From positions 23,754 to 87,753 of the forward strand of contig JAZNCE010000003.1 in the NCBI GenBank assembly GCA_045587385.1: a stretch of 64,000 nt of DNA. Reading direction: 5' to 3'. The position numbers were made by a program, and so were the translations under genes. This document shows positions 29,641 to 53,504 of the stretch, in pieces. This DNA is from Eubacteriales bacterium (GTDB lineage: Bacteria; Bacillota; Clostridia; Oscillospirales; CAG-272). Under the pieces are notes generated by a model, which was not told where the DNA came from, ran no database searches, and saw only the letters and a program-made list of their open reading frames with translations. Each line of letters starts with the position of its first letter. Position 1 is the stretch's first letter.

Positions 29641-31890
29641 TTACTTGTCATCCTCGAACAGGAAGCTGTAGTGAGAGGACTCACCCTTGAAGCCTTCGTA
29701 AGAGAACTCACCGTCAATCCAAACCTTATCGTTGGACTTGAACTTGTTGTAAATGTAGGACTGTCTGTCTTCGCAGTAAGCCTGGAAGTTTGCCTCGAGG
29801 AAATCCTCAACCTTTTCAAGGTAAGACTTGTAACCGGAAGCGGTCGTCTTGGTCAGCACCAGCGTGTTGGTGTAGGTGTCCTTGATCTTGTTGATGTTGC
29901 CGGAGGTCAGGGAAACGTACTGGTTTGCAACGATGGGAGTTACGGGAACTTCATCCATCAGAATGTCCTCTGCTGCGTGCAAGAGAGTTGCGCGGTCAGC
30001 AAGGTAGGTCTTGGTGTTGGGGGTGATACCGTACTTTTCGTAAACTGCGGTGATTGCTGCGTAGGTAGCGTCGGCATCTGCCTTTGCTGCCGTAGCGTCA
30101 CCATCGTGTCTTGCAATAAAGTAGTCGTTACCGTACGCGGTGTTCAGGAAGTATTTGTAGAAGTCGTTGTAGTACTGCAGGAAGTAAACTGCTTCCATCA
30201 GAGTGTTGTATTCCTCGTTGTCAAAGCCGGTAACGTGGGGGGTGAGCAGGTAGTTCTCGGTGTCGGACATATCCATTGCCTGACCGGAAAATGCCTTTGC
30301 GAAGGGAGCAAGGATAGTGTAAGCATCCATGGTTACAGCACCCATATCCATTGCCATAACCTCGTACTTACCTGCTACGAGATCTTCCATATAAAGGTCG
30401 TCACAGATATCTTCGGGAACGGAGTCGGTCCACTTGTAGTAGTCGTTGTTGAGAATGGTGCCTCTCTTATTGACCTTTACGTCAAAGCCGAGAGCTTCCC
30501 ACTGATCTGCAACCATCTCAGCGATTGCAACGTGCATTTCGTCGTAAGCAGCAACCGTGATAGAGAAGGAGTAATCCTTTGCGTTGATGCCTGCGCTCTT
30601 GAGCTCAGCCTTGAGCGTATCAACGTCAACGGTAGTCAGGGTCTCGTAAGTGGAGGCAGCAGCCTCGCGGAAGGTTTCCTTGTGGGAGTTGGTGTTGAAG
30701 ATACCGTTGGGAACGATACCGGTAGCAACCTCTGCATACCAGATCGCATCTACGATAGCTTGGCGGTCGATTGCCTTGGAAAGTACCTGACGAACGGTCT
30801 TGTTCGCGAAGAGGTATTCACCCTCACCACCGTTGTCAATCAGCGCGTTCTGATTGAAGAAGTAGGTGTGGTTGGACATTGCATCGGTGGTCTTAACGTC
30901 CTTGAGCAGATCGGTGTATGCTTCGTCGCCGATCCAGGAGAAGGGAATGTTGTCAATGTACAGGATCGCGCCGGACTCGTAAGCGGCTGCAACCTGTTCA
31001 TCGGTCATGGAGAAATCTACAACAATCTTATAAGGGGTAACGTACTTGTCGAGCTTTTCTTCCTTATCAACGTCACGGTAATAGTAGGAGTTGCGCTCCA
31101 GAACCAGGAACTTGATCTGGGCTTCCTTAAAGTCCTTACCAACGATCAGATTGCCGCTGACATCCTCGTACTCGTAGCTTGCGTCGTGGTACTTGGTGTT
31201 GTTTTCAACGAACTCAACTCTGCCGAGCTTGAAAGGGCCGCTGCATACGATGGTAGCAGGCTTCTTTGCCCAGTCGGGCTTTGCAGTAATGTCCTCACGC
31301 AGGGGAGCGAGCGCGATGCTGGACAGATTGAGAATGAACTGGTCGTAGTTAATGGGACCCTCAAACTCAACGGAGATCATACGTTCACCCTCTGCATAGA
31401 TGCAAAGGTCGTCGATGGACATATCGCCTTCCTTAACGGAACGAGCGTTCTTGATATCGTACAGCAGAGCTGCTGCATCATAAGAGCTCTCTACGTCCAG
31501 AACGCGCTTCCACGCATAAACGACGTCGTTTGCGGAAACATAAGTACCGTCGGACCAGCAGGTGTCGTTGAGGTAGATATCCATTTTATACTCGTTGCCT
31601 GCAGCGTCTTCTTTGATGACGTACTTTTCTACCAGGGACTTCTTGACCTTTCCGTTTTCGTTCACCTTGAACAGGGTCTCGAACAGCAGGTTCGCAATAG
31701 TGGTAGTACCGTCGTTATAGAATGCGGTAGCAGGGTCAAGATCGTATACCTGGTCAGAGAGATACATAGTCAGGTATTGACCCTTGTCTTCTGTCTTTTT
31801 CTTGTTCTTGTCGCCACATGCGCTCAGGCAAACAAGAGAGCCTGCCAGCAGGCAAAGGCAGAGAACGGATGCAAGGATGCGCTTTGTCAT
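29641..31890 (-). CDS. ABC-transporter substrate-binding lipoprotein, family 5 (peptide/oligosaccharide), no cognate permease genes nearby
   Basis: Start at MTKRILASVLCLCLLAGSLVCLSAC, a signal peptide with lipobox LSAC, behind GAGGAGGA. The ORF-track 892-aa start has no RBS and no signal peptide. The body has the SBP_bac_5 pattern but is long, at 749 aa. Confidence 0.8.
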   Translation of the reverse strand: MTKRILASVLCLCLLAGSLVCLSACGDKNKKKTEDKGQYLTMYLSDQVYDLDPATAFYNDGTTTIANLLFETLFKVNENGKVKKSLVEKYVIKEDAAGNEYKMDIYLNDTCWSDGTYVSANDVVYAWKRVLDVESSYDAAALLYDIKNARSVKEGDMSIDDLCIYAEGERMISVEFEGPINYDQFILNLSSIALAPLREDITAKPDWAKKPATIVCSGPFKLGRVEFVENNTKYHDASYEYEDVSGNLIVGKDFKEAQIKFLVLERNSYYYRDVDKEEKLDKYVTPYKIVVDFSMTDEQVAAAYESGAILYIDNIPFSWIGDEAYTDLLKDVKTTDAMSNHTYFFNQNALIDNGGEGEYLFANKTVRQVLSKAIDRQAIVDAIWYAEVATGIVPNGIFNTNSHKETFREAAASTYETLTTVDVDTLKAELKSAGINAKDYSFSITVAAYDEMHVAIAEMVADQWEALGFDVKVNKRGTILNNDYYKWTDSVPEDICDDLYMEDLVAGKYEVMAMDMGAVTMDAYTILAPFAKAFSGQAMDMSDTENYLLTPHVTGFDNEEYNTLMEAVYFLQYYNDFYKYFLNTAYGNDYFIARHDGDATAAKADADATYAAITAVYEKYGITPNTKTYLADRATLLHAAEDILMDEVPVTPIVANQYVSLTSGNINKIKDTYTNTLVLTKTTASGYKSYLEKVEDFLEANFQAYCEDRQSYIYNKFKSNDKVWIDGEFSYEGFKGESSHYSFLFEDDK

Positions 31891-32098
31891 GGTTGAGTTT
31901 TCCTCCTCGTGCATTTGTAGATCACGGCAACCGTTGGTAGCCGTCGGTGCAAATTGAGAGCCTGAAATTCGGCGCGCAGATCGGTTTTGTGTACATGCAC
32001 AAAACCAAGCGGACAATCCTGTGCATGTTGCACATGAACTTTCCGCGTCCACCGAGAAGCAAGCTCTTATACTCGCATATTTACATATAGTATAACTG

Positions 32099-32112
32099 AT
32101 TTTTCGAAAAAT
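32099..32112. promoter_or_regulatory. AT-rich perfect palindrome ATTTTTCGAAAAAT (CodY-box-like)
   Basis: Lies in the divergent SBP/gpr promoter region. It resembles AATTTTCWGAAAATT but lacks the central base. Confidence 0.25.
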
Positions 32113-32170
32113 TGCAAGAGAAAAATCAAAATTTAATATATAATTTATAAATTTATTTTTGGGAGGGGTC

Positions 32171-33010
32171 ATGGAAAGCCGATTTCGAACTGATCTTGCC
32201 TGTGAGCGAAGGGGGAACGCGCACGGCGACGATTCCTTGCTGTACGGCTGTCGCGTCAGCCGTACGGTGGAGCGACACAAGGAAAAAAAGACAGCGTATG
32301 CGACCGTGCGCTTTGACAAGCTTTCTGCCGACGCGGAGAGTATGCATCAAAATCCCGTGCGTGCGGTTGCAGAGCTGCTGGCGCAAAGCGCAACGCGTCT
32401 TGCTCCCGACGCGCGTTGCGTGCTGGTTGCCTGCCTTGGAAATCCGCGCATCACGCCCGATAGTCTCGGCCCTTGTACGGCGCGTGCCCTGGAGGTCACG
32501 CGCCACGTGCAGCTGTTGGATCCCGCTGTCTTTTCGCGTTTTGGCAAGGGGGCTTTGTGCGCAGTTGTGCCCGGGGTGCTTGGGGATACGGGAATGGAGG
32601 CGTCCGAGCTTGTGCGGGGCGCAGCGCGCGAGGTAGGGGCGGAGCTGGTCGTGGCGGTGGACGCCTTGGCGGCATGCAATCCCGCGCATCTTGGCACTAC
32701 CGTGCAGATCTGTGATCGCGGGCTTCGCCCCGGGTCGGGTGTGGGCAACCGCCGCGTGCCCGTTGATGCCGGGAACGTGGGCTGTCCCGTGATCTCGCTC
32801 GGTATGCCCACTGTGATAGACGGCGGCACGCTGCTTTGCGACGCGCTCTCGCGTGCGGGGATCTGCGGTGTGGGAGAGGAGCTGGAAAAGTATCTTGCCT
32901 CGGTGGGACACTATCTGGTCGCGCCTGCGGATATTGACGCGATCGTCCTGCACGGTGGTGCGCTGCTGGCGCGCGCCATCGGCGCTTGCTTCGGACTTGG
33001 GGATGTGTGA
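32171..33010 (+). CDS. gpr: germination protease (GPR endopeptidase)
   Basis: Start at MESRFRTDLACE behind GGGAGGGG. CLGNPRITPDSLGP, VPGVLGDTGMEA and GMPTVID are GPR signatures. Confidence 0.9.
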   Translation: MESRFRTDLACERRGNAHGDDSLLYGCRVSRTVERHKEKKTAYATVRFDKLSADAESMHQNPVRAVAELLAQSATRLAPDARCVLVACLGNPRITPDSLGPCTARALEVTRHVQLLDPAVFSRFGKGALCAVVPGVLGDTGMEASELVRGAAREVGAELVVAVDALAACNPAHLGTTVQICDRGLRPGSGVGNRRVPVDAGNVGCPVISLGMPTVIDGGTLLCDALSRAGICGVGEELEKYLASVGHYLVAPADIDAIVLHGGALLARAIGACFGLGDV

Positions 33011-33011
33011 G

Positions 33012-33040
33012 GTATAATTTTTCTTATGCTCGCATACCGT
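33012..33040 (+). promoter_or_regulatory. possible sigma-E-type sporulation promoter for spoIIP
   Basis: GTATAAT, 14-nt spacer, CATACCGT. This approximates the -35 kmATAtt / -10 CATACA-T consensus. Confidence 0.3.
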
Positions 33041-33071
33041 GTAGCATCACCTACGAAAAGGAGCATGGAAA

Positions 33072-34190
33072 ATGGACGAGCATAAAACAAACGGTATGAC
33101 GGAATTTTTAAGGCGCGAGATCCGCGCGTGGGAGGATGCGGGGGCGATCGGACACTTGGGCACGCGCGCACACAGATTCCCCAAATGGCTGCCCGTGGCG
33201 GCGGCAGCTGTCGGCGCTGCGGTACTGATCACACTTGCCGTGTTTTTGGTGCCGTGGAGCAGCATGAAGCCGCCCGCCCCCGACAGCGGACAAGAGGGCG
33301 GGGAGCTTGACGGTGCCGTTCCGCCCTTGACGCAGGATAGTGAAGCGCAACAGCCCGAGCAAAGCACGGAGCAGGGCAGCGCGCAAGAGCCTGTGCCGCT
33401 TGACCCGTACGCTTACGATTATGCGGTCGTGCCTGCGGGCGCTGTGCCCATCGTACCCATGGATATCGGTGCAAAACAAAACCCCGTCGATCAGACCGAC
33501 GGAGGAATCGATATGGAAGGCGTGATGGAGTCGGCTTGTCTGATCCCCGCGCCGCGCGGCAGCATCAGCGTGCTGATCATACATACCCATACGGGTGAGG
33601 GCTACAATCGCGAGGGCGCGTTGTGGCTGGACGCCGATGACGAGGAGTTTGCGCGCAGCGCGGACGGCTCTGACGGTGTGGTAGCAGTAGGGGCACGGCT
33701 TGCGCAGAAACTGAACGAGGCGGGCATCGGCACCATCCATTGTAAGACCGTGTTTGACGGAGAGTCCAACCGTGAGTCCTACGCGCGTGCAGCGGAGGCG
33801 ATCAAAGCCTTCCGTCTGGCGTACCCCGGATTGGTCTGCGTCATTGACGTGCACCGTGCCGCAAGCATCAACGAGCAGGGGCATTACGTGCGCTCGCTTG
33901 CCGTCAAGGACGGGCAGGGGATTGCGCAAACGCAGGTCATCTGCGGCATGAACGCAGGCGAGCAGAGCAAGACAAATCTTGCACTTGCAATGCTGCTGCA
34001 CGAGCGCATGAACGCAGCCTTTTCGGGCAGCTGCGCGGGCGTGATCTGCAAATCGCAAACGCTCAATCAAGACCTTTCCCCCTTTGCGCTGACGCTGGAG
34101 ATCGGCAGCTGCGGCAATACGCCCGCGGAAGCAGAGGCGGCAGCCGACGTGACGGCTGCCGCACTATGTACGCTGTTCCAAACCAATTAA
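33072..34190 (+). CDS. spoIIP: stage II sporulation protein P
   Basis: RBS AAAGGAG. One TM helix. LIIHTHTGEGY, VIDVHR and FALTLEIG are SpoIIP amidase-like motifs. gpr-spoIIP synteny matches Bacillus. Confidence 0.88.
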   Translation: MDEHKTNGMTEFLRREIRAWEDAGAIGHLGTRAHRFPKWLPVAAAAVGAAVLITLAVFLVPWSSMKPPAPDSGQEGGELDGAVPPLTQDSEAQQPEQSTEQGSAQEPVPLDPYAYDYAVVPAGAVPIVPMDIGAKQNPVDQTDGGIDMEGVMESACLIPAPRGSISVLIIHTHTGEGYNREGALWLDADDEEFARSADGSDGVVAVGARLAQKLNEAGIGTIHCKTVFDGESNRESYARAAEAIKAFRLAYPGLVCVIDVHRAASINEQGHYVRSLAVKDGQGIAQTQVICGMNAGEQSKTNLALAMLLHERMNAAFSGSCAGVICKSQTLNQDLSPFALTLEIGSCGNTPAEAEAAADVTAAALCTLFQTN

Positions 34191-34477
34191 GTCTTTTGCT
34201 TCAGACAAAGGATCTCGATGCAGGCGATGAGTGCCACCAGCACGATGCCAAGACCAAAGCTGATCACGCCGGCTTCAATACCGCCGACGATGCCGAAGAA
34301 CACGAAAATGCAAGCGGTCAGGGAAACGCCCTTGACAACCTTGCCAAGACCCAGCGCGCAGACAAACTGCCAGAGTGCTGCGGGCAGGGAAAGCAGAACG
34401 GAAATAAGCGACTCGTTCTCGGCGGTGCGAGAGCCTACGTTTGTATTGGTAGTTGCGATTCTGTTATAGTTCGTCAT
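34187..34477 (-). CDS. small hypothetical membrane protein (2-3 TM helices)
   Basis: AAGGAG lies 8 nt upstream. The hydrophobic segments are clear. Its stop codon overlaps the spoIIP stop on the opposite strand. Confidence 0.65.
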   Translation of the reverse strand: MTNYNRIATTNTNVGSRTAENESLISVLLSLPAALWQFVCALGLGKVVKGVSLTACIFVFFGIVGGIEAGVISFGLGIVLVALIACIEILCLKQKT

Positions 34478-34489
34478 GATGAATCTCCT

Positions 34490-34740
34490 TTTCTCTGTGC
34501 GCCGAATTTTCCGAGCTTGGAAAAACGGCTGCGAAATGTGGAACGGAACTGTCGGAAAATGTTCGGAAAGTTCCGAAATTGGAATATCATGGCTGTATTA
34601 TAACACCCAAAATCGGATTTGTCAACCCCTATTTTTCAAAAATCGGAAAAATTTTTCAAAAACCTCTTTACAAAACGGAAAAACCGTGCTATAATAAGAC
34701 CGTAAGAGAAAAAGCACGGGAAAAATCCCGGAAACGGAGG
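34490..34740. repeat. array of CGGAAA(A)-type short repeats in the promoter region of the S24-HTH repressor
   Basis: GTCGGAAAATG, TTCGGAAAG, TTCCGAAATT (inverted), AATCGGATTT, AATCGGAAAAAT, AACGGAAAAACC, CCGGAAACGG. Also CGGAAC...GTTCCG at 34543-34575. Confidence 0.6.
34667..34695 (+). promoter_or_regulatory. sigma-A type promoter for the S24-HTH repressor
   Basis: TTTACA, 17-nt spacer, TATAAT preceded by TGC. Confidence 0.6.
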
Positions 34741-34745
34741 GTTTC

Positions 34746-35552
34746 ATGTCCGAACTTACTTATATTGACAGAATCAAGAAGATCAAAAGCGAGCGCCGCA
34801 TCACCAACGACAAGCTGTCCGAGATGACCGGCATCCCGCTCGGTACGCTTTCTAAAATTTTGGCAGGCATCAGCGATTCGCCCAAGCTTTCCAACATGCT
34901 GGCGATCTGCCGCGCCCTGGATTGCTCTTTGGATTATATCGTCAGCGGCACGCCCGAAAATCATCATAATTATACTCTGACGGACGGTGAGATCGCACTG
35001 GTCGAGCACTACCGCCGCCTTGACAGCCACGGCAGCGAGCTGGTCGCGCTGGTGCTGGATAAGGAATACGAGCGCGTGACCGCGCAGTCCTACGCAGCTG
35101 CACCCGCACCTGTAACCCCTGCGCGTCAACCCGAAATCAAGCCCTCCAAATCGAGCTTTACCCGCGTGTCGGGCGGACTTGGCAAGCGCACCATCAGCCT
35201 GTACGACCTGCCCGTTTCCGCTGGTACGGGTGTGTATCTGTTTGACAGCGTTGCGACGGATATTGCTATCCCTGACAACGGAAAAACTGCCGATGCGGAC
35301 TACGCGCTGCGCATTTCGGGTGACAGTATGGAGCCCAAATATCACGACCGTGACGTGCTGCTGATCCAGGAATGCGATCAGATCGAGCCCGGCGAGCTCG
35401 GCATTTTCGTGCTGGACGGCGAGGGCTATTTCAAGAAGTTCGGCGGCGATTGCCTGATCTCGCTTAACCCCTTCTACGCGCCCATCATGCTGCGCGATTT
35501 CGAGGACATCCGCTGCTGCGGCAGAGTCATCGGTAAGCTGCATAAAAAGTAA
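34746..35552 (+). CDS. XRE-HTH / S24 peptidase (LexA- or phage-repressor-like) self-cleaving regulator
   Basis: N-terminal HTH (NDKLSEMTGIPLGTLSKILAG). C-terminal S24 domain (RISGDSMEPKYHDRDVLLIQ...YFKKFG) carrying the Ser/Lys dyad. Confidence 0.85.
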   Translation: MSELTYIDRIKKIKSERRITNDKLSEMTGIPLGTLSKILAGISDSPKLSNMLAICRALDCSLDYIVSGTPENHHNYTLTDGEIALVEHYRRLDSHGSELVALVLDKEYERVTAQSYAAAPAPVTPARQPEIKPSKSSFTRVSGGLGKRTISLYDLPVSAGTGVYLFDSVATDIAIPDNGKTADADYALRISGDSMEPKYHDRDVLLIQECDQIEPGELGIFVLDGEGYFKKFGGDCLISLNPFYAPIMLRDFEDIRCCGRVIGKLHKK

Positions 35553-36706: not shown

Positions 36707-36745
36707 AAAAACGCGCCTGCGGAAAATCCGCAGGCGCAATTTTTA
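36707..36745. terminator. bidirectional terminator
   Basis: GCGCCTGCGG-AAAAT-CCGCAGGCGC flanked by A and T runs. Confidence 0.75.
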
Positions 36746-36749
36746 TGTT

Positions 36750-39437
36750 TCAGTGCTTTTTCTTTTTGGAGCAAACTGCAAAGGGAAGAGCTGCCAAGCT
36801 GATCAGAACGATCACGCCGCCCATAGAGGACTTGCATCCGCCGGGTTTGACCTCGTCGGTGATCTCACCGGTGACCTCGTCGGTACTCTGCTCGGTCGTT
36901 TCGGTGCTCGGCACGTATTGCTCTGCAGTCTTGGGATCGATGCAGTTCTGATAAGTGTAGTTGAGTCTGCCCAAAGGAGCTGCATCACCGTCGGTGTAGA
37001 ACTGCTCCATAGTTTCAATCTTGCTGTCGCTGTCTGCCCACTTGAACTGCAGCTTAATGCCGTTCGGGTTGGTAATGCCCAGCATTTCCATGGGGACTGC
37101 GATCATCATCTTGTTTTCCTTTGCGCGGTAGTTAACCTCGCCCACAACCTCAAAGGAGTAAGCACCGTCCGTGCCGTTGTAGCGCGCTACGGTGGTGGTG
37201 AATTCGTCCTTTGCGCCGTAGTTGACAATGTAATCATAGCCGTACCAGCCGGTATTGGCATCACAATCCACGTCCACGAACAGCTGCATCCAGGTGGAGT
37301 TGTTGTCAAACATGGTGATATACTCGCGGGTTTCTGCGTAGAAGTAAACGTTCTTGGTGTCGGCTGTAACCTTGGAAGAAAGAATATCGTTTCTGCCCGT
37401 GGTGTTGGTGTATTTGACTCTGCCAAAGCCGTAAGCGTTACGGTCCAGCATATCGTTTGCGGGGTCGGTGTAGGTCACAAGCACCTTTTCCCAAATGTCA
37501 AACGAGCCTGTGACGTTGACTGCGTTGCGTGCGTCCTGCACGATCACGGGAGCAGCCCCCTTGAGTCTTTGGATATTATAGGCGATCTGCATGTAGTAGT
37601 TGTCAAAGTAGCCGCCCTTCATCATTTCGGCATCACGCGAGAATTCGGAGGAAGCGCAGTCCACAAAGCCGATCTCACCGGGATAATCCTGTCTTTGCGC
37701 GATCCACTCGTTCCAGCCCGTAACCAGTACGTAAGGAACGTCAGCTTCAATGGCTCTGTCCCACTGGGACTGGAAGTTTGAACCCTGCACGAATGCGTTG
37801 GGATTCTTGTCAAGCAGCTTGAAGTAGTCGGTACGCGATTTTGCGTTATTGACCTTTCCTGCAAAGGATCTGCCAAGGTTGGATTTATCACCGTAAAGTG
37901 CGGAATCGGAGAAGCATGCCGTGCCAAGATGTTGCGCAATGGACACATTGATCGCACTGGGCTTGCCGTTTGCGTCGTTATAGACGTTCTGCGGCCACTC
38001 AAAATCCATCCAGGGCCAGCCGTTTTCCTTCATGTCCTCGGTGGGCCATTGATTGAGCTTAATGGTAAAGAAATCGTTGACGTTTGCCTCGTAGGGAGCA
38101 ACGATAGCGGGCTTGCCGTCGATCATGTACCAGGTATCGGGGTAATGACCGGGGGCGTAGATCTCGTCGTAGATCTGCTTGACGCGGATCACGGCATCGG
38201 TATTGGTATAGAACATGACCTCGGGAGCGTCGTAGCCCTGCTCGTTGAATTCGTGCAGAATTGCCATGAGCTTGAGTGCAATGCTCGAGTAGGTGGAGTT
38301 GTTGGTGGTGTCAAAATAGAGGAAGTCAACGCCTGCGTTCATAAGCAGCTCAACGTGCTTGCGCATAACGTATTCGTCGTCAATGTAGTAGTAGCCGTAA
38401 AGAGGCTCGCCCCACCAGTGCCAGGTGTGAACGGGACCCCACAGGGGATTGTTCACGTCGCCTGCCTTATCTCCCGATTGGTCAATGATCTCTTGCATAT
38501 TCTTCACGCCGGGGTCGCCGTGCTGACCGTGCCAGAGGAAGTAGAAGATACCCACGTCGTGATCCTCTGTCACAACGCCTACCTGCGTGGAGTCAAACAG
38601 GGAACGGTCCAGATCGTCCGTGCCTGCGTAGCCGCCGAACAGATTGACCTCGTTGTTGGGAACGGTGTAGGAAACGGCATTCTCACCCGAACCGTAGGAA
38701 ATGGTGGCGTATTTGCCGTCATCGGAGTAAGTGATCTTGAGCGTGCCTTCGTAATTGTCGTCTGCACCCGGTGCTGTTTCCTTGAATGCGGGATCGGGCC
38801 ACTCGGTTTTGGGCAGCGTTGCAGCCTCCTGCTCGCTCTGCTGCTCCTGCTTTGCATATTCCTTGTATGCAGCAAAATCAAATGCCTGCGCCTTTTCCTC
38901 GCTGTCAAAGAATGCAAAATAACGAAGCTCGATCGCGTCACCGGCCTTGATGCCCTGGTGCATGTGCAAAGGGTCAAGACGCAGTTGGGTAAATACGGCG
39001 TCCTGCACGTCTGCCCAGCCTTCGCAGTGGACGATCAGCTTGTGCCATTCACCATCGGGAGTCCAATTCCATTCCAAATGGGAAGCAGCGTCCTGCGAGA
39101 AGGAAACACCGTCATTTCTTGCAATGTATATCTCGCCCATTACCTTAGCGGTGGTGCGGTATTCGATTACAAGATAAGCCGCGTCTGCCACCTTGATGTC
39201 GGGCGTGGGAAGCTCCATGGCAGGGTCGTTTTCGGTCGCGGTAAAGGTGGTGTATTCACCCTCCTTGACCTCGTAGGTCATTTTTGCCACACCCTTTAAT
39301 TGCTTGCTGACCTCTTTGTCGCCAAAGTCAAGGATGTAAGTGGGCTTTGCCTCGTATTCCTGCGCCGCTGCGCTCAGGTAGACAAGCGTGCTAAGCAATA
39401 TGCAGACGCATAATGCAAATAGAGTGATGCGTTTCAT
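36750..39437 (-). CDS. secreted multi-domain GH-like protein (beta-sandwich, GH99-like TIM barrel, beta-sandwich domains) with C-terminal GGCKS/TM/KKKK anchor; paralog A
   Basis: Signal peptide MKRITLFALCVCILLSTLVYLSAAAQ. N-terminal module ends in LRLDP...IELRYFAFF. Core has FYFLWHG, WWGEPLYGYYY, AGVDFLYFDTTN and TGWNEWIAQ, which is GH99/WbsX-like grammar with low family certainty. The C-terminus is KPGGCKSSMGGVIVLISLAALPFAVCSKKKKH. Confidence 0.8.
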   Translation of the reverse strand: MKRITLFALCVCILLSTLVYLSAAAQEYEAKPTYILDFGDKEVSKQLKGVAKMTYEVKEGEYTTFTATENDPAMELPTPDIKVADAAYLVIEYRTTAKVMGEIYIARNDGVSFSQDAASHLEWNWTPDGEWHKLIVHCEGWADVQDAVFTQLRLDPLHMHQGIKAGDAIELRYFAFFDSEEKAQAFDFAAYKEYAKQEQQSEQEAATLPKTEWPDPAFKETAPGADDNYEGTLKITYSDDGKYATISYGSGENAVSYTVPNNEVNLFGGYAGTDDLDRSLFDSTQVGVVTEDHDVGIFYFLWHGQHGDPGVKNMQEIIDQSGDKAGDVNNPLWGPVHTWHWWGEPLYGYYYIDDEYVMRKHVELLMNAGVDFLYFDTTNNSTYSSIALKLMAILHEFNEQGYDAPEVMFYTNTDAVIRVKQIYDEIYAPGHYPDTWYMIDGKPAIVAPYEANVNDFFTIKLNQWPTEDMKENGWPWMDFEWPQNVYNDANGKPSAINVSIAQHLGTACFSDSALYGDKSNLGRSFAGKVNNAKSRTDYFKLLDKNPNAFVQGSNFQSQWDRAIEADVPYVLVTGWNEWIAQRQDYPGEIGFVDCASSEFSRDAEMMKGGYFDNYYMQIAYNIQRLKGAAPVIVQDARNAVNVTGSFDIWEKVLVTYTDPANDMLDRNAYGFGRVKYTNTTGRNDILSSKVTADTKNVYFYAETREYITMFDNNSTWMQLFVDVDCDANTGWYGYDYIVNYGAKDEFTTTVARYNGTDGAYSFEVVGEVNYRAKENKMMIAVPMEMLGITNPNGIKLQFKWADSDSKIETMEQFYTDGDAAPLGRLNYTYQNCIDPKTAEQYVPSTETTEQSTDEVTGEITDEVKPGGCKSSMGGVIVLISLAALPFAVCSKKKKH

Positions 39438-39470: not shown

Positions 39471-39499
39471 ATTATAGCATGCAATGCGGTGTTTGTCAA
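39471..39499 (-). promoter_or_regulatory. sigma-A type promoter for paralog A
   Basis: Minus strand: TTGACA, 17-nt spacer, TATAAT preceded by TGC. Confidence 0.6.
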
Positions 39500-39585: not shown

Positions 39586-39615
39586 AAAAAAACGGCTGCC
39601 CGCAAAGGGCAGCCG
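39586..39615 (-). terminator. rho-independent terminator after paralog B
   Basis: Minus strand: CGGCTGCCC-TTTGC-GGGCAGCCG followed by TTTTTTT. Confidence 0.75.
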
Positions 39616-39621
39616 AAGCGA

Positions 39622-42273
39622 TTATTGTTTTTTCTTTTTGGCGTAAGCCGCAAAGGAAAGTGCTGCAATGCCGATCAGGGCGACTGTGCTGCTTGCAATG
39701 GATTTGCATCCGCCGCTCTTGCCCTCATCCTCGGGGGCATCCGTGCTTGGCACGTACTGCTCGGCGGTTTCGGGGTCAATGCAGTTTTGATAAACGTAGT
39801 TCAGTCTGCCCAAGGGAGCTGCGTCACCGTCGGTATAGAATTGCTCCATGGTGGTAATCAAGGAGCGGCTGTCCGCCCACTTGAACTCAAACTTAATGCC
39901 GTTCGGGTTGGTGATGCCCAGCATTTCCATAGGCACCGCCAGCATCATTTGATTGCCCTCTACGCGGTACTCAATCTCACCGATCACTTCAAACGCGTAA
40001 GCACCGTCCGTGCCGCAATAGCGTGCAACCGTTGTGGTATCAAGGTCTTTGGCTTGATAGTTGATAATGTAATCGTATCCGTACCAGCCGTCACCTCCCG
40101 TGGAGAGAAACAGCTGCATCCAGGATCTGTCATCCTTGGGTAAGCAGATATTCTCTCTGGTCTCTACGTAGAAATATACGTTTTTGGTGTCTGCGGTGAC
40201 CTTTGCGGCAACGATATCGTTTTTGCCGGTATCGTTGACGTAATGAATGTTTCCAAATCCGTACGAATCGCGATCCAGCATGTCCTTGATGGGGTCGGTG
40301 TAGGTGACTTGTACCTTGTCCCATACGTCAAAGCTGCCCGTGAGGTTGACCGCGTTGCGCGCGTCCTGCACGATCACGGGTGCCGCGCCCTTGAGTCTTT
40401 GAATGTTATAGGCAAGCTGCATGTAGTAGTTATCAAAGTAGCCGCCCTTCATCATTTCGGTATCGCGTGAAAATTCGTAGGAAGCGCAATCCATGAATCC
40501 TACCTTGTCGGGGTCATTCATTCTTTGCGCGATCCATTCGTTCCAGCCAGTCACAAGCACGAAGGGAACGTCTGCTTCAATGGCTCTGTCCCATTGCGCC
40601 TGGAAGTTGATGCCTTGTACGAACAGATCGGGGTTTTTCTCAAGCCTTTGGTAGTAATCGGTGCGGGTCTTTGCGCTGTTGATCGCGTCTGCAAAGGATC
40701 TGCCGAGATTGCTCTTGTTTCCGTACAGTGCAGAATCGGAAAAGCAGATCGAGCCGCTGTGCTGTGCGGCAGATACGTTGATTGCGCTGGGATTGCCGTT
40801 CGCATCGTTGTAGATGCGCTGCGGCCACTCAAAATCCATCCAGGGCCAGCCGTTTTCCTTGGGAGCTTCCGTGGGCCATTGGTTGAGCTTTACCGTAAAG
40901 AAGTCGTCAATATTTGCTTCGTAAGGGGCAACGATCAAGGGCTTGCCGTCCAGCATGTACCATGTGTCCTTGTAGAAGCCCGGGGCGTAGATCCTCTCAT
41001 AGATCTCGCGCACGCAGGACTCTGCTTGGGTATTGGTGTAAAACACGACCTTAGGAGCATCATAGCCCATTTTGTTGAAGTCGTGCAGGATCGCCATCAG
41101 CTTAAGCGCGTTATCCGCATAAGCAAAGCCGTTGGTGGTATCAAAGTATAAAAAGTCAATGCCTGCACCTATTAAAAGCTCGATGTGCTTGCGCGCCACC
41201 CAGTTATCGTCTGCATAATAGTAGCCGTAAAGCGGCTCACCCCACCAATGCCATTCGTAAGGCTTGCCCCACAGCTCGCAATTGGGATCGCCTGCTGCCC
41301 CGATGCCCACTTGATCAATGATTTGCTGCATGTTGTAAACGCCCGTGTCACCGTGTTCACCATGCCAAAGGAAATAGAAGATGCCAACATCGTGTTCCTC
41401 GGTCACCACGCCCACTTGGGTAGAGTCGAAAAGTGACCTGCCAAGATCGTCCGTGCCCGCATACCCACCAAATAGGTTGATTTCGTTGTTGGGGACGGTA
41501 TAGGAAACAGCATTTTCACCTTCTCCGTAGGATATCGTGGCGTATTCGCCGTCTTCGGAGTACATGATTTTGAGCGTACCCTCATAGTTATCATCGGGGT
41601 GTACCTCTTGCTCCTTGTATACGGGAGTGGGCCAGGGCGAATGGGGAATCACTCCCTCGGGCAAGATAGGTCCGTTTTGGGAAACGTATTGTTGATATGC
41701 CGCCAGATCAAAATTCACGGCATCCTGCTCGTCCCGGAAAAAGGCAAGGAAACGGATATCAATCGTCTCGCCGCCAGCTGCTTCAAGACCCAAGCGCACC
41801 GGATCAAAACGCAACGCGGTCATTACAGCGTCTTCCGCGTCAGCCCAGCCCTCGCAATGTACGATCAGTCTGTGCCATGAACCGTCGGGAATCCAATCCC
41901 ATTTCAGCGTTGAGTCGGGGGTTTCACCCATGGAAACGCCATCATCGCGCGAAATAAAGATCTCGCCCTGCTCACAGCTTTCGGTTCTGTATTCAATGCA
42001 GAGATATTTTGCACTGTTAACGTAAATATTGGGCGAGATCAGCAATAATTGCGGGTCGCCGCCAAGTGCGGTGAGAGTGGTGTGCGAGCCATCGTTGACC
42101 ATGTAGTTGAGATTATAGATGCCTCCGCCGATATTTGCCGTAATGCCTGAATTGGTAAAGTCATAGATCCAAGAGGGGAGGATGGCAGCATCCTCGGCAA
42201 ATGCAGTAAACGCTGCAGGCACGCCCAAAAGCAAGATCAGGGCGAGCAGCAGTACAACGATTCTGTATTTCAT
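39622..42273 (-). CDS. secreted multi-domain GH-like protein, paralog B, with the same C-terminal GGCKS/TM/KKKK anchor
   Basis: Start at MKYRIVVLLLALILLLGVPAAFTAFA (signal peptide) behind GAGGAG. Collinear with paralog A over its whole length, with long identical peptide blocks such as NAVSYTVPNNE.NLFGGYAGTDDL.RSLFDSTQVGVVTE.HDVGIFYFLWHG. The C-terminus is KSGGCKSIASSTVALIGIAALSFAAYAKKKKQ. Confidence 0.8.
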   Translation of the reverse strand: MKYRIVVLLLALILLLGVPAAFTAFAEDAAILPSWIYDFTNSGITANIGGGIYNLNYMVNDGSHTTLTALGGDPQLLLISPNIYVNSAKYLCIEYRTESCEQGEIFISRDDGVSMGETPDSTLKWDWIPDGSWHRLIVHCEGWADAEDAVMTALRFDPVRLGLEAAGGETIDIRFLAFFRDEQDAVNFDLAAYQQYVSQNGPILPEGVIPHSPWPTPVYKEQEVHPDDNYEGTLKIMYSEDGEYATISYGEGENAVSYTVPNNEINLFGGYAGTDDLGRSLFDSTQVGVVTEEHDVGIFYFLWHGEHGDTGVYNMQQIIDQVGIGAAGDPNCELWGKPYEWHWWGEPLYGYYYADDNWVARKHIELLIGAGIDFLYFDTTNGFAYADNALKLMAILHDFNKMGYDAPKVVFYTNTQAESCVREIYERIYAPGFYKDTWYMLDGKPLIVAPYEANIDDFFTVKLNQWPTEAPKENGWPWMDFEWPQRIYNDANGNPSAINVSAAQHSGSICFSDSALYGNKSNLGRSFADAINSAKTRTDYYQRLEKNPDLFVQGINFQAQWDRAIEADVPFVLVTGWNEWIAQRMNDPDKVGFMDCASYEFSRDTEMMKGGYFDNYYMQLAYNIQRLKGAAPVIVQDARNAVNLTGSFDVWDKVQVTYTDPIKDMLDRDSYGFGNIHYVNDTGKNDIVAAKVTADTKNVYFYVETRENICLPKDDRSWMQLFLSTGGDGWYGYDYIINYQAKDLDTTTVARYCGTDGAYAFEVIGEIEYRVEGNQMMLAVPMEMLGITNPNGIKFEFKWADSRSLITTMEQFYTDGDAAPLGRLNYVYQNCIDPETAEQYVPSTDAPEDEGKSGGCKSIASSTVALIGIAALSFAAYAKKKKQ

Positions 42274-42301: not shown

Positions 42302-42330
42302 ATTATACCACGGTACGTGCGGGCTGTCAA
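42302..42330 (-). promoter_or_regulatory. sigma-A type promoter for paralog B
   Basis: Minus strand: TTGACA, 17-nt spacer, TATAAT preceded by TGG. Confidence 0.6.
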
Positions 42331-47841: not shown

Positions 47842-48690
47842 TTAGTCCGTGCCGCCAAGCGTGATGATGACCAGCTCGGGGCGGTTGTTGAATCGCAGCG
47901 GGAAAGAGCTTTGCCCGATGCCGCGGCTGACTACCATGTTGGTGTTCTGATAGGTGTAAACGCCGCTGTCGTATGCGGGGAAGGCACCCTGACCGGGGGC
48001 GTAAAGTCCGCCGATCAAGGGCAGACGGAATTGACCGCCATGTGCGTGTCCCGAAAGAGTGAGATCAATCCCCGATTCGGCATAACGCCAAAAGTATTCG
48101 GGGCGGTGCGAGAGCAGGATGGTAAATCCGTCCGTGCCCGCAAGCTCACGTAACTGCTCGGGGGAGTGCAGAACACCTTCGTAGTTTTCGTCATCCACGC
48201 CCACAAGTGTAATGCTTGCATCCCCGCGCGTCAAAGTGACCTTTTCGTCATGCATCACGTCCACACCTATCTCGCGTATCTGCGCTTCCAGCGCAAAGTA
48301 GCTCTGTCGGTTCATGGCGCATTCGTGATTACCCGTGACCATATAGCAGGGTGCAATCTCCATGCACGCGCGCAAAAATGCCAGCGTGGGGGCTTTATCG
48401 GGATGCCGCTCGTCAAAGGTGTCACCCGTAAAAACAATGATGTCGGGCTGCGCCTCTTTTAGCATCGACAGCAGCTTTTGGTTGCCCTCGTCGTATTCCG
48501 CGCAGTGCAGGTCGGCGATCTGGGCGATACGAAAACCCTCAAATTCGGCAGGCAACCGTGCGCTTGCGATGGTATAGTCCGTGCGCTCAAGCGCCGTGTT
48601 TGCCCAAATCACCCAGCCGCCAAAGGCAATGCAGAGCGCAACCAAGGCGCCGAGCACACAAAACAGTATCTTTTTCTTGTTCGTCATCAC
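47842..48690 (-). CDS. membrane-anchored metallophosphoesterase (YkuE/calcineurin-like)
   Basis: N-terminal TM helix. DLH, TGDTFD, GNHE and SGHAHGGQ. Confidence 0.85.
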   Translation of the reverse strand: MMTNKKKILFCVLGALVALCIAFGGWVIWANTALERTDYTIASARLPAEFEGFRIAQIADLHCAEYDEGNQKLLSMLKEAQPDIIVFTGDTFDERHPDKAPTLAFLRACMEIAPCYMVTGNHECAMNRQSYFALEAQIREIGVDVMHDEKVTLTRGDASITLVGVDDENYEGVLHSPEQLRELAGTDGFTILLSHRPEYFWRYAESGIDLTLSGHAHGGQFRLPLIGGLYAPGQGAFPAYDSGVYTYQNTNMVVSRGIGQSSFPLRFNNRPELVIITLGGTD

Positions 48691-50111
48691 AGATTATAGT
48701 ACTTTTCAAACTCAGCGGGGTGGGGAATTGCTGCCATGGCTCTGCATTCCTCACGCTTGGTCTTGATGAAGTTGTTGATCAGCTCAATCGGGAACACGCC
48801 GCCTGCTGTCAGGTAGTCGTGATCAGCCTCCAGCGCGTCAAGGGCATCGGGCAGGGAAGTAGGAAGCTGCTGCAGCTTTGCCTTTTCCTCGTCGGAGAGA
48901 TGATAGAGGTTGAAGTCGTAGGGACCCCAGCCGTTTGCATGCGGGTCGATCTTGTTCTTGATACCGTCCAAGCCAGCCATCAGAATTGCAGCGTAGCAGA
49001 AATAGGGGTTGCAGGTCGCATCGGGATTGCGCAGCTCAAAGCGACGCTTGTCGGGCGATTTTGCATATGCGGGAATACGAATGACCGCACTTCTGTTGGA
49101 GGTTGCATAGCCTACGGTAACGGGGGCTTCAAAGCCGGGCACCAGACGCTTGAAGGAATTGGTGCTGGGGTTGGTCAGCGCGCAAAGCGACGCGATGTGT
49201 TTCAGCAAGCCGCCCATAAAGTAATGTGCGGTTTCGCTCAAGTGTGCGTAACCGTCGTCATCCGAGAAGACCGGCACGCCGTCCTTGAACAGCAGCATAT
49301 GCACGTGCATACCGCTGCCTGCCTCACCTGCGATGGGCTTGGGCATAAAGGTAGCGGACTTGCCGTACTTGAGCGCGGTGTTGTGAATGATATACTTGAT
49401 CATCATGGTGGCGTCAGCCATGTGCACGACCTCGCCAAGCTGCGGCTCGATCTCAAACTGACCGGATGCTGCAACCTCGGGGTGATGATAGTTGATCTCA
49501 ATGCCCGCGTCCAGCATGTGCATGCACATCTCACTTCTTGCTTCGTAAGCGCGGTCAAAGGGCTTGGCAATATGGTAAGCCTTTTGCTTGGGGACGATGA
49601 CGCCGTGTCCCTGACTGTCGCTGTTCCAGTAGGACTGCTCGGCATCCACGTGCGCACCGATATAGTTGGGGGAGACCTCCCAGCCTACGTTGTCAAACAG
49701 ATAGAATTCAAATTCCGGCAAAATCTTCATGGTGTCGGCAATGCCGCATTCGCGCATATGCGCCACGGCTGCCTTGATAATGTTTCTGGGGTACTGGGCA
49801 AGAGGCTTGTTTTCGGGAGAGGCAATGATCATGGCGTCACCCGTCATGCTCAGCGTGGGAATGTCACAGAAGGGATCGATCTGTGCGGTGTCGGGATCGG
49901 GAATAAATACCATATCGCTCTTTTCCACCACGGCATAGCCGTAGTTGGAGGCATCAAAGCCGATGCCGCTTTTCATGGTATCCTCGGTAAAATTCTGTGC
50001 GGGAATGGTGACGTGACGGTACTGACCGCTGATGTCCACCATCTTGAAATCCACCATCTTGATGCCGTTTTCACGGATCATGCTCATAATATCCTGTACA
50101 CTTTTTGCCAT
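48687..50111 (-). CDS. glnA: glutamine synthetase, type I
   Basis: 474 aa. Contains FDASN, GSGMHVHMLLF and NPSTNSFKRLVPGFEAP. A 4-nt overlap links it to the downstream phosphoesterase gene. Confidence 0.92.
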   Translation of the reverse strand: MAKSVQDIMSMIRENGIKMVDFKMVDISGQYRHVTIPAQNFTEDTMKSGIGFDASNYGYAVVEKSDMVFIPDPDTAQIDPFCDIPTLSMTGDAMIIASPENKPLAQYPRNIIKAAVAHMRECGIADTMKILPEFEFYLFDNVGWEVSPNYIGAHVDAEQSYWNSDSQGHGVIVPKQKAYHIAKPFDRAYEARSEMCMHMLDAGIEINYHHPEVAASGQFEIEPQLGEVVHMADATMMIKYIIHNTALKYGKSATFMPKPIAGEAGSGMHVHMLLFKDGVPVFSDDDGYAHLSETAHYFMGGLLKHIASLCALTNPSTNSFKRLVPGFEAPVTVGYATSNRSAVIRIPAYAKSPDKRRFELRNPDATCNPYFCYAAILMAGLDGIKNKIDPHANGWGPYDFNLYHLSDEEKAKLQQLPTSLPDALDALEADHDYLTAGGVFPIELINNFIKTKREECRAMAAIPHPAEFEKYYNL

Positions 50112-50310: not shown

Positions 50311-50844
50311 ATGGATCTGCGCATCGTAAAAACCAAAAATCAGATCAAGCGGGCGTTTTTGTCGCTGCGTAATAAGTATTCGCTGGAAAAGATCAAGGTC
50401 AAGGATATTTGTGAGCTTGCCATGATCAATAAGACCACGTTTTACAAGCACTACGTGGATTCGTTCGCGCTTGCCAACGAATTGGAAGAGGGCTGTATGG
50501 AAAAGCTGATGAATGCTTTTTCCGAAAAAAAGAGTTTGTTTGACTCGCCCAAGGCGTACGTGCAGGGGCTTTTGAGTGCAACCGAGAAATACGCAGAGGA
50601 GCTGCGCGAGGTCTATCGCGGCAGAACGGAAGCATTTGTCTCCAAGCTGGAGCAAAGGCTGATGCAGGCATGCGAGAGCGGTGAGAATACCGAACGCCGT
50701 ATGGCAGCCACGTTTATGATCAGCGGCACCTCTCAGGTGCTTGCACAATGGCTGTTCGGTGAGGAGGGCAAACGCCCCGACCTTAGTGCTATTGCGGCAT
50801 ACATAGAGCGTATGTCAAAAAATCTGCTTCCCGCAGCTCAGTAA
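50311..50844 (+). CDS. TetR/AcrR family transcriptional regulator
   Basis: RIVKTKNQIKRAFLSLRNKYSLEKIKVKDICELAMINKTTFYKHY is a TetR N-terminal HTH. Confidence 0.88.
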   Translation: MDLRIVKTKNQIKRAFLSLRNKYSLEKIKVKDICELAMINKTTFYKHYVDSFALANELEEGCMEKLMNAFSEKKSLFDSPKAYVQGLLSATEKYAEELREVYRGRTEAFVSKLEQRLMQACESGENTERRMAATFMISGTSQVLAQWLFGEEGKRPDLSAIAAYIERMSKNLLPAAQ

Positions 50845-50854
50845 AGGAATAGGA

Positions 50855-52507: not shown

Positions 52508-52520
52508 TCAGGAGGAAAAT

Positions 52521-53504
52521 ATGGCAACTTATAAAATCGCAATAGATACGTTGGGCAGTGATAAGGGCCCCGAAACCATTGTACAGGGTGCTTTGATGGC
52601 ACTTGCCGAGAACCCCGAGCTGTCGGTCGCGCTGTTTGGTGACGAGCAGGTCATCCGCGCGTATCTTTCTACCGTGGAGCACGATGCAGATCGCATTGAG
52701 ATCGTGCACGCGCCCGACGCCATTACCAATTACGATAACCCCATGGAGGCTATTTTCAAAAAGCCCGAGTCCTCGCTGGTCAAGGCGCTGCAGGCTCTTG
52801 CCGCACGCGATGATCTGCTTGGTCTGATCAACGCAGGCAGCACGGGCGCGCTGATTGCGGGCGCTTTGCGTTACGTTCCCGCCAAGCCCTTGCGCAGACC
52901 TGCTCTTGCAGCCATTCTGCCCGCAGCAAAGGGCGGCTTTACCTGCCTTGTGGACACCGGTGCCAATATAGACTGCACAGCTCCCATGCTGGTAGACTTT
53001 GCGCACATGGGCTCGGATCTGATGCAGCAGTGCTACGGTATTGAAAATCCCCGTATCGGTCTGCTCTCCAACGGTGCAGAGGAGACCAAGGGCAACAAGC
53101 TTGTCAAGGAAACGCACGCGCTGCTCAAGGCTGACGAAAAGCTCAATTTCGTAGGCAACATTGAGGGCACCAACGCGCTCTCCGGCGACTGTGACGTGCT
53201 GGTAGCGGACGGCTTTGCAGGCAACCAGGTGCTCAAGAACTCCGAGGGAATTGCCAAGCGCATCATCACCGATATCGTGGTGTACGCCAAGAAGACGCAG
53301 AACCAGGAGATCATGAAGCTGGTCGGATATCTGATGGGCATTTACGATTTCAATTCGCTGGGCGGCGCGCAGCTGCTGGGCGTCGGTAAGCCCATTATCA
53401 AGGCGCACGGCGCAGCAAATGCAGATTCTATCAAAAACACCTCTGCCATCATGCTCAACGTAGCAAGAAACAAGGCTATGTTTGACGGCAAGGATGTCAG
53501 ATAA
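52521..53504 (+). CDS. plsX: phosphate acyltransferase PlsX
   Basis: IAIDTLGSDKGP, NAGSTGAL and the LLG...PIIKAHG pattern. Confidence 0.93.
   Translation: MATYKIAIDTLGSDKGPETIVQGALMALAENPELSVALFGDEQVIRAYLSTVEHDADRIEIVHAPDAITNYDNPMEAIFKKPESSLVKALQALAARDDLLGLINAGSTGALIAGALRYVPAKPLRRPALAAILPAAKGGFTCLVDTGANIDCTAPMLVDFAHMGSDLMQQCYGIENPRIGLLSNGAEETKGNKLVKETHALLKADEKLNFVGNIEGTNALSGDCDVLVADGFAGNQVLKNSEGIAKRIITDIVVYAKKTQNQEIMKLVGYLMGIYDFNSLGGAQLLGVGKPIIKAHGAANADSIKNTSAIMLNVARNKAMFDGKDVR

Follow-up and report, generated by a model that had tools for sequence, protein, structure and literature searches.

A Candidate Cysteine-Type C-Terminal Sorting Signal on Surface Enzymes of Uncultured Gut Clostridia

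Introduction

Two tandem genes, referred to here as paralogs A and B, lie in a 64,000-nucleotide stretch of the Eubacteriales bacterium assembly GCA_045587385.1 (contig JAZNCE010000003.1, positions 23,754 to 87,753 of the forward strand; hereafter the window). Each encodes a large secreted protein that ends in a Gly-Cys motif, a hydrophobic helix and a cluster of lysines. We conclude that these last ~30 residues probably form a modular, tripartite, cysteine-type C-terminal sorting or anchoring domain of an uncultured gut Clostridia lineage, in which the cysteine would be modified and the helix removed. A first-pass annotation of the window had proposed a candidate signal of the cysteine type, and the proposal is supported both by conservation of the tail within the protein family and by its presence on unrelated carrier proteins.

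Results

Two Tandem Genes Encode Secreted Proteins with a Common Tail

Paralogs A and B (66% identity; Table 1) share one architecture: a signal peptide, a β-sandwich resembling a carbohydrate-binding module (CBM), a (β/α)-barrel core resembling glycoside hydrolases (GH), a second β-sandwich, an acidic stalk and the tail, called the GC tail below. Translation bears out the coordinates that the first-pass annotation had given for both tails; the genes lie on the minus strand, and the plus strand at these coordinates gives no meaningful protein. Each protein has a Sec-type signal peptide at one end and GGCKS, 20 hydrophobic residues and KKKK[H/Q] at the other. In the AlphaFold2 (AF2) model of paralog A, helices span residues 2-23, in the signal peptide region, and residues 875-889, in the transmembrane (TM) segment, and residues 846-877 have a predicted local distance difference test score (pLDDT) of ~30, indicating disorder. 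No other open reading frame (ORF) of the window carries a tail of this kind. The stalks in front of the motif have diverged, as had been noted before, with an 11-residue indel between A and B. Over the 31-residue tail, 16 residues are identical in the two paralogs, a lower proportion than in the body. Conservation between the two paralogs alone therefore does not go beyond simple inheritance, and the case rests on the wider comparison.

Table 1. Features of the window discussed in the text
Feature	Position	Strand	Details
Paralog A	36750-39437	minus	895 aa ORF
A, Sec signal peptide	39363-39437	minus	MKRITLFALCVCILLSTLVYLSAAA; predicted cut before QE (cleavage site inferred)
A, stalk	36843-36902	minus	~residues 846-865; acidic, Thr/Glu-rich, disordered
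A, tail	36753-36845	minus	PGGCKSSMGGVIVLISLAALPFAVCSKKKKH; stop codon directly after
A, motif	36828-36842	minus	G866-G867-C868-K869-S870; Cys codon TGC 36834-36836
A, TM segment	36768-36827	minus	SMGGVIVLISLAALPFAVCS; 20 aa, hydrophobic, abuts motif without spacer
A, cytoplasmic basic cluster	36753-36767	minus	KKKKH; stop codon 36750-36752
A, promoter	39471-39499	minus	sigma-70-type, TTGACA-17-TATAAT, TG-extended; 12/12 consensus match
A, intrinsic terminator	36712-36738	minus	12-bp stem, 9 GC pairs, T-run
Paralog B	39622-42273	minus	883 aa; architecture as paralog A
B, Sec signal peptide	42196-42273	minus	MKYRIVVLLLALILLLGVPAAFTAFA; predicted cut before ED (cleavage site inferred)
B, tail	39625-39717	minus	SGGCKSIASSTVALIGIAALSFAAYAKKKKQ; stop codon directly after
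B, motif	39700-39714	minus	G854-G855-C856-K857-S858; Cys codon TGC 39706-39708
B, TM segment	39640-39699	minus	IASSTVALIGIAALSFAAYA; 20 aa, hydrophobic
B, basic cluster	39625-39639	minus	KKKKQ; stop codon 39622-39624
B, promoter	42302-42330	minus	sigma-70-type, TG-extended; 12/12 consensus match
B, intrinsic terminator	39593-39615	minus	9-bp stem, 8 GC pairs, T-run
Lipoprotein-type, solute-binding-like protein	29641-32319	minus	large; lipobox LSACGD
Spore-former housekeeping genes	32159-35552 and 50311-53504		GPR, SpoIIP and others (see text)
glnA	48687-50111		

The Gly-Cys Motif Is Conserved within the Family

The paralog body has 1043 homologs at E<1e-5, found in uncultured Clostridia and Oscillospiraceae, and the tail statistics refer to the best 120 of these. 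The design of the tail is kept in 118 of the 120, down to ~50% identity, and the Thr/Glu/Pro-rich stalk cannot be aligned across them. Gly at position -1 and Cys at position 0 are present in all 118 tailed homologs and Ser at +2 in 107 (~90%). Position +1 is K, G or A, and the residue before G-C is Gly in only 43 of the 118. The basic cluster, which is Lys-rich, begins 19-23 residues past the cysteine, and the protein ends 4-7 residues further on. Alignment A4 shows an invariant G867, with C868 conserved at ≥90%. The general form of the tail is [K/G/S]-G-C-[K/G/A]-S ... [K/R]KK[E/K][D/N], most commonly [K]KGC[G/A]S...[R/K]KK[E][D/N] among the relatives. As read from these alignments, the core signature is G-C-x-S, and GGCKS...KKKK[H/Q] is a local dialect of it. 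The first-pass annotation had stressed the exact conservation of GGCKS and KKKK. The two paralogs do share both elements, in what proves to be a lineage-specific form of a shorter core. Conservation beyond chance is seen in the wider family, in G-C, kept in 118 of 120 homologs, in Ser at +2 and in the distance between the cysteine and the basic cluster.

Of the two homologs that lack the tail, one (P0042) is a frameshifted fragment; in the other (P0044, 55% identical) a plain, Cys-less TM anchor takes the place of the tail, an anchor swap within one cargo family. A large protein encoded in the same lineages (L044:1789-6513, minus strand) also ends in a plain Cys-less TM segment and basic anchor.

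The Same Tail Occurs on Unrelated Proteins

A profile built from 77 tails only (profile A1, 33 positions) was searched against 1.84 billion (1.84e9) representative proteins. It gave 119 matches at E≤1e-3, 117 of them at the extreme C terminus and most on unrelated bodies. Indeed, once the tails were removed, most carrier bodies showed no similarity to the window family, and 98 of them fell into 37 single-linkage clusters, that is, at least 37 cargo clusters. Many carriers are full-length proteins of 300-1224 aa, and a Sec signal peptide was found in 31 of 38 full-length carriers. Their domains include LRR_5 (BspA-type leucine-rich repeats, LRR), F5/8-C (discoidin), MucBP, GDSL lipase, Endonuclease_1, pectate-lyase-like adhesive and GLUG domains, and many carriers have no known domain. 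To find one module at the C terminus of many exported proteins that are otherwise unrelated is characteristic of sorting signals and not of family-specific anchors. The concern raised at first pass, that the motif might be confined to the two paralogs, is thus removed by the 118 tailed homologs and by the many unrelated signal-peptide proteins that carry the tail. A word-indexed protein search with a 42-aa tail alignment returned just 7 short fragments, such a search being ill suited to queries this short.

Across carriers, the stalk is composed of T (19%), E (16%), A (11%), P (10%) and D (9%), and the helix of A (26%), V (18%) and G (10%), so that small residues and helix breakers (GG, P) abound in it. 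Because the tail searches themselves required G-C, a count was also made of bystanders, that is, of ORFs in the fetched genome blocks that have a C-terminal TM segment and basic tail and lie outside the search pattern. The large Clostridial bystanders comprised seven of the G-C type, one of the S-C type (S-C-G-S) and one without cysteine. An S-C-G-S variant, lacking Gly at -1, is encoded at L028:2633-4840.

A degenerate DNA pattern representing the tail, matched in frame against the GTDB representative genomes, gave at least 120 loci. Because TGC, TCN and the 20-codon gap between motif and basic cluster are fixed in it, the pattern samples only a fraction of the real tails, which makes the counts per genome lower bounds. 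A bona fide tail ending a long ORF was present at no fewer than 51 of these loci. Among the matches listed, all 51 bona fide loci belong to Bacillota, 49 being labeled as class Clostridia and the other two as an unclassified "bacterium" and an "Erysipelotrichaceae bacterium"; all non-Bacillota loci and about 15 Bacillota loci failed the bona fide filter. The Clostridia labels comprise metagenome-assembled genomes (MAGs) of Eubacteriales and Oscillospiraceae, Ca. Scatosoma, Clostridium sp. CAG:448, Anaerotruncus, Subdoligranulum and Lachnospiraceae. At least three MAGs matched on two different contigs, several 8-kb blocks held two carriers, and tandem carriers were common; the A+B tandem of the window was found again in other species (L045 and L057).

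As judged from these comparisons, the tail is modular, restricted to a taxon and shared by many cargoes. Also evident from the sequences are Sec export, a C-terminal helix backed by positive-inside lysines and, abutting this helix at the outer membrane interface, the invariant Gly-Cys.

The Cargo of Paralogs A and B Resembles Glycoside Hydrolases

The body of the paralogs belongs to no Pfam or NCBIfam family, a search of the PDB with the cargo sequence returned nothing, and public records label these proteins "hypothetical protein." The AF2 model of paralog A (mean pLDDT 80; predicted template modeling score, pTM, 0.77) shows an N-terminal β-sandwich, a central (β/α)-barrel-like domain, a C-terminal β-sandwich, the disordered stalk and the terminal helix, in that order. 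In Foldseek comparisons the barrel resembles GH85 Endo-D and GH71 α-1,3-glucanases, and the sandwiches resemble CBM6/11/86. Going by the model, paralogs A and B most likely degrade glycans while displayed on the cell surface and belong to a glycoside hydrolase family that is not yet classified. Elsewhere, the GC-tail genes of L012, L023 and L055 lie within ATP-binding cassette (ABC) sugar-transporter loci, with BPD_transp_1 permeases on their flanks, a setting that would fit roles in the capture and degradation of glycans.

Gene Organization and Neighborhood

Paralog B starts at ATG 42273 and not at TTG 42330, the position given in the mechanical ORF list. The TTG is excluded because it falls inside the promoter of the gene, and the paralog B orthologs P0030 and P0031 begin with MKYRIVV, which supports the ATG. 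The presence of a promoter and a terminator of its own for each gene (Table 1) suggests that A and B are two monocistronic genes, independently and strongly expressed.

The spore-former housekeeping genes on either side include those for the germination protease GPR, SpoIIP and a LexA-like protein with a helix-turn-helix and an S24 peptidase domain; by sequence, a TetR-like regulator and FakA-like and PlsX-like genes then follow in the same stretches. The presence of SpoIIP and the germination protease indicates that the host is a monoderm spore-former. The lipobox of the solute-binding-like protein, identified by inspection only, is N-terminal and lies downstream of the mechanical ORF start; this protein shows the ordinary Lgt/Lsp lipoprotein pathway to be present in the host.

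Comparison with Described Sorting Signals

The tails were compared with NCBIfam release 20.0 (June 2026), which holds curated C-terminal sorting-domain models, using as queries the full proteins, 77 family tails and 77 tails of unrelated carriers. No model of this release recognizes the tails consistently; matches to CTERM models were scattered, and every shown score lay under the curated cutoff. Pfam gave nothing at the tail of the window proteins or of the carriers. The tail does not, then, coincide with an already described sorting domain, a second concern of the first-pass annotation. Full-text literature searches returned myxosortase papers only and no paper describing the tail, and the words "Firmicutes" and "Clostridi" are absent from the preprint of Haft (10.1101/2023.06.07.544157).

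The GC tail has the sequence features of the generic tripartite prokaryotic sorting signal as defined by Haft. It occupies the extreme C terminus of proteins with an N-terminal signal peptide; it consists of G-C-x-S, ~20 hydrophobic residues and [K/R]KK, with 4-7 residues to the end; and within a restricted taxon it is shared by proteins that are not homologous, with several carriers in one genome. A hydrophilic spacer between motif and helix is typical of sortase signals and absent from signals of the intramembrane-protease type, and it is polytopic intramembrane proteases that act on signals lacking one (Haft, 10.1101/2023.06.07.544157). The spacer-free junction and the small-residue helix of the GC tail are a design typical of intramembrane-protease signals. 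The four known cysteine-type signals, MYXO-, JDVT-, Synerg- and CGP-CTERM, are all assigned to CPBP/Rce1-like enzymes (Haft, 10.1101/2023.06.07.544157).

Among these, MYXO-CTERM combines a motif of the generic form GCGC with a TM helix and a cluster of Arg residues (PMC11980579). The CPBP protease MrtX cuts this signal, and the cut depends on the Cys (Guo, Haft & Wall 2025, PMC11980579). Prior lipidation of its cysteine has been proposed, with Lgt as the leading candidate transferase (PMC11980579). Like the GC tail, this signal (TIGR03382 "GC_trans_RRR" and TIGR03901) is a tripartite domain on Sec-exported proteins, with Gly-Cys, an invariant Cys, a TM helix and a basic cluster, and it follows a disordered linker on dozens of unrelated surface proteins. 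The differences are that MYXO-CTERM is confined to the diderm Myxococcota, where MrtX/MrtC/MrtP are present and export to the surface depends on a type II secretion system (T2SS), whereas the Clostridia studied here are monoderm and no T2SS step is possible; that a GCGC pair is frequent there, whereas the GC tail has one Cys with Ser at +2; that TraA has a spacer before the helix, whereas the tails here have none; and that the end is Arg-rich there and Lys-rich here, although Arg-rich versions exist in some Oscillospiraceae (L091 and L067). Dialects of this kind, with ends of the form GGC[R/S/A]S...RRRR that come still closer to MYXO-CTERM, were seen at L091 (CP091718.1, an Oscillospiraceae chromosome), L067 and L111. 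TIGR03382 matched 2/77 and 7/77 tails in the two sets (shown score 13.4 bits against a cutoff of 15.85) and TIGR03901 matched 2/77, weakly. The GC tail therefore falls outside MYXO-CTERM: the scores are below cutoff, the carriers are Clostridia, and the CPBP protein encoded beside carriers at L120 (see below) matches no Mrt model. No MrtX ortholog was identified.

Synerg-CTERM/MrtS (TIGR04564) shares with the GC tail a Gly/Ser-rich cluster, a single invariant Cys, the lack of a spacer and a proposed CPBP-type enzyme. Its motif stops at the Cys, whereas the tails here continue with x-Ser, and it is confined to Synergistales and linked to a T2SS. The GC tail is not a member, given the different phylum and the weak, inconsistent matches (5/77 and 11/77, best E 3.6e-5). 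The CGP-CTERM/MrtA signal of Thermococcales and JDVT-CTERM/MrtJ are also tripartite C-terminal signals that contain a Cys and are predicted to be processed by CPBP enzymes, and the CGP-CTERM host, an archaeon, is likewise single-membrane. Both have other motifs (C-G-P and the JDVT type) and occur in other taxa; the JDVT model matched 2/77 tails, and no match is listed for the CGP model.

The most frequent match was to a sortase-signal model, NF033846 Rumino_NPXTG (42/77 tails, weak; shown score 17.3 against a cutoff of 23.5 bits), with TIGR01167 LPXTG_anchor at 34/77 (weak; 13.5 against 15.9). The GC tail could be a divergent sortase signal, with a specialized Clostridial sortase reading x-G-C-G/K-S in place of LPXTG/NPXTG and linking the protein to peptidoglycan. 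These matches would agree with such an origin, as would the overall plan of the tail, the likeness of its TM and KKK(E/D) part to Ruminococcus-type NPXTG anchors, and cargo kinds (MucBP, LRR, adhesin-like) that are typical of sortase substrates in other Firmicutes. However, the shown scores lie under the curated cutoffs, and the shown NF033846 alignment runs over model positions 5-30, where the TM and basic portions lie, leaving the NPXTG motif outside. The signature is Cys-based, has no [L/N]PxTG pentapeptide and neither Pro nor Thr, and is not followed by a hydrophilic spacer; no sortase gene was seen among the ~31 scanned genes of the window or in the annotated neighborhoods. Membership in this class (TIGR01167, NF033846) is not supported, and a sortase reading of the tail is very improbable.

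In a further alternative, a rhomboid or site-2-type protease would cut G-C-x-S in a regulated manner and free the enzymes into the medium instead of anchoring them. Small residues at the boundary and helix-destabilizing Gly/Pro in the upper helix are classic features of rhomboid substrates, and the window motifs open with G-G, as in GlyGly-CTERM. However, the GlyGly-CTERM/rhombosortase model TIGR03501 gave one weak match among 77 tails, and Gly precedes G-C in only 43/118, which places the GC tail outside that class. Rhomboid specificity needs no invariant Cys, the long wall-spanning stalk speaks for display and not release, and no rhomboid was found in the examined neighborhoods. Regulated shedding is very improbable.

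The N-terminal lipobox processed by Lgt/LspA resembles the motif in having an invariant Cys amid small residues, at the outer membrane interface and beside a hydrophobic helix, and G-C-G-S is also a common core of Firmicute lipoboxes. In the GC tail, however, the helix is C-terminal to the Cys, so that the topology is inverted; the signal is located at the C terminus and not the N terminus; and positions -3/-2 are charged or polar where a lipobox has L-[AS]. Hedgehog- or intein-like autoprocessing at G|C was rejected: only the helix, and no Hint-like domain, follows the Cys.

Search for a Processing Enzyme

A scan of ~31 of the ~40 window genes against Pfam or NCBIfam turned up no gene for a CPBP protein, rhomboid or sortase, in agreement with the earlier supposition that the enzyme is encoded elsewhere. 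None of the multi-TM ORFs of the window is protease-like, and no gene of the three families adjoins family members elsewhere. The multi-TM neighbors of the 51 carrier loci are ABC permeases, ECF, MatE, amino-acid permeases, AzlC and similar proteins. At L120, a canonical CPBP gene (L120:2631-3668, minus strand; PF02517 E 1e-14; EEFLFR and HFLFN motifs) is convergent to two GC-tail genes. Its 65%-identical relative at L126 keeps this synteny and is the sole such relative in a metagenome scan. The L120 family has 102 members of ~340 aa with eight TM segments, CPBP/Rce1-like (L120, L126-L131). In its divergent relatives (42-47% identical) the DJ-1/PfpI partner and a neighboring glnA are retained, and no carrier is adjacent; at L129, one carrier lies 9 kb from the CPBP gene. 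The L120 CPBP protein is a candidate enzyme, nothing more, and its adjacency to the carriers appears to be lineage-specific synteny.

The pair of CPBP and DJ-1/PfpI genes often lies upstream of glnA, and a SCIFF peptide and a radical S-adenosylmethionine (SAM) maturase are encoded nearby in L128 and L130. At another family locus (L001:12908-14087, minus strand, and also L002), two tandem paralogous 5-TM proteins of ~200 aa are encoded directly downstream of family member P0071. They were rejected as the enzyme: they match nothing in Pfam or NCBIfam and are not kept at other family loci.

Discussion

The GC tail is best placed as a cysteine-type tripartite sorting signal that lies outside current models and is the first of its type to be seen in monoderm bacteria. 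By analogy with MYXO-CTERM and Synerg-CTERM the cysteine would be modified, and intramembrane cleavage, as in the MYXO-CTERM/myxosortase system, would follow. As the sequence shows, the N-terminal signal peptide routes the protein through Sec, and the C-terminal helix and KKKK then hold it in the cytoplasmic membrane, with Gly-Cys exactly at the outer membrane interface. There the cysteine may be covalently modified, the leading idea being lipidation by an Lgt-like transferase, and a polytopic intramembrane protease, for which the CPBP/Rce1-like type is the leading candidate, may cut off the helix. The enzyme domain would in this way remain tethered by its C terminus, with the long acidic Thr/Glu/Pro stalk reaching across the wall. 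In its full form, the proposal is that gut Clostridia have an unrecognized route of surface display with a housekeeping role, one of monoderm "C-terminal lipoproteins," in which the cysteine is lipidated and the helix is cut by an intramembrane "sortase" of the CPBP or another type; this more specific proposal is tentative and falls a little short of probable.

Several observations weigh against processing. No cognate enzyme was identified in the window, the family neighborhoods or the 51 GTDB loci. A CPBP neighbor is present at just 1 of these 51 loci, and the conserved partner of the L120 family is the DJ-1/PfpI gene and not a GC-tail gene; three of four divergent CPBP loci have no carrier within 10 kb, and the L120 protein, as noted, matches no Mrt model. 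CPBP genes are common in Firmicutes, and the adjacency could be due to chance. The known cysteine-type signals all occur in diderms or archaea and are tied to a T2SS or envelope context that is absent here, and the basic cluster of the GC tail is Lys-rich and not Arg-rich. Finally, in a monoderm a TM helix alone anchors a protein, and surface display needs no cleavage.

Because of this last point, the main rival is an unprocessed anchor with a functional juxtamembrane cysteine. The tail would be a permanent type-I membrane anchor spread by domain shuffling, and Gly-Cys would serve for reversible S-acylation, for a disulfide with a partner or the surface layer (S-layer), or for redox or metal sensing. 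A TM helix and a positive-inside cluster suffice for retention at a monoderm surface, the plain Cys-less anchors of P0044 and of the large L044 protein would be in keeping with this, and no dedicated enzyme was found near the 51 GTDB loci or among the scanned genes of the window. Such an anchor, however, leaves unexplained why G-C and Ser(+2) should be invariant at a fixed interface position in at least 37 unrelated clusters, and why the helix should be rich in small residues and helix breakers (GG, P). In characterized systems, moreover, an architecture of this kind is always processed. We therefore consider the unprocessed anchor unlikely, though clearly more plausible than a sortase signal or shedding, and retain the processed cysteine-type signal as the preferred reading.

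The GC tail occurs in gut Clostridia that are abundant yet uncultured, represented by Oscillospiraceae and Eubacteriales MAGs of human, ruminant and poultry origin. The proteins that bear it govern the encounter of these bacteria with host and diet; they are glycoside-hydrolase-like enzymes, mucin-binding and LRR adhesins, lipases and nucleases, nearly all of them recorded as "hypothetical protein." Recognition of the tag would mark this surface proteome, justify a new hidden Markov model for annotation and give a query with which to find the enzyme by phylogenetic profiling. A transferable tag of ~30 residues would also be useful for surface display in anaerobic Firmicutes. The monoderm setting would make the question of the Cys-modifying enzyme testable without an outer-membrane export step. 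If the proposed pathway is true, it would take over the function of LPXTG/sortase, serving in each genome dozens of adhesins and enzymes that degrade glycans, would be the first cysteine-type sorting system in Gram-positive bacteria and would show the myxosortase-type mechanism to be independent of the outer membrane and the T2SS. The recently established paradigm of cysteine-type, CPBP-dependent sorting would thereby be widened from diderms and archaea to monoderm bacteria.

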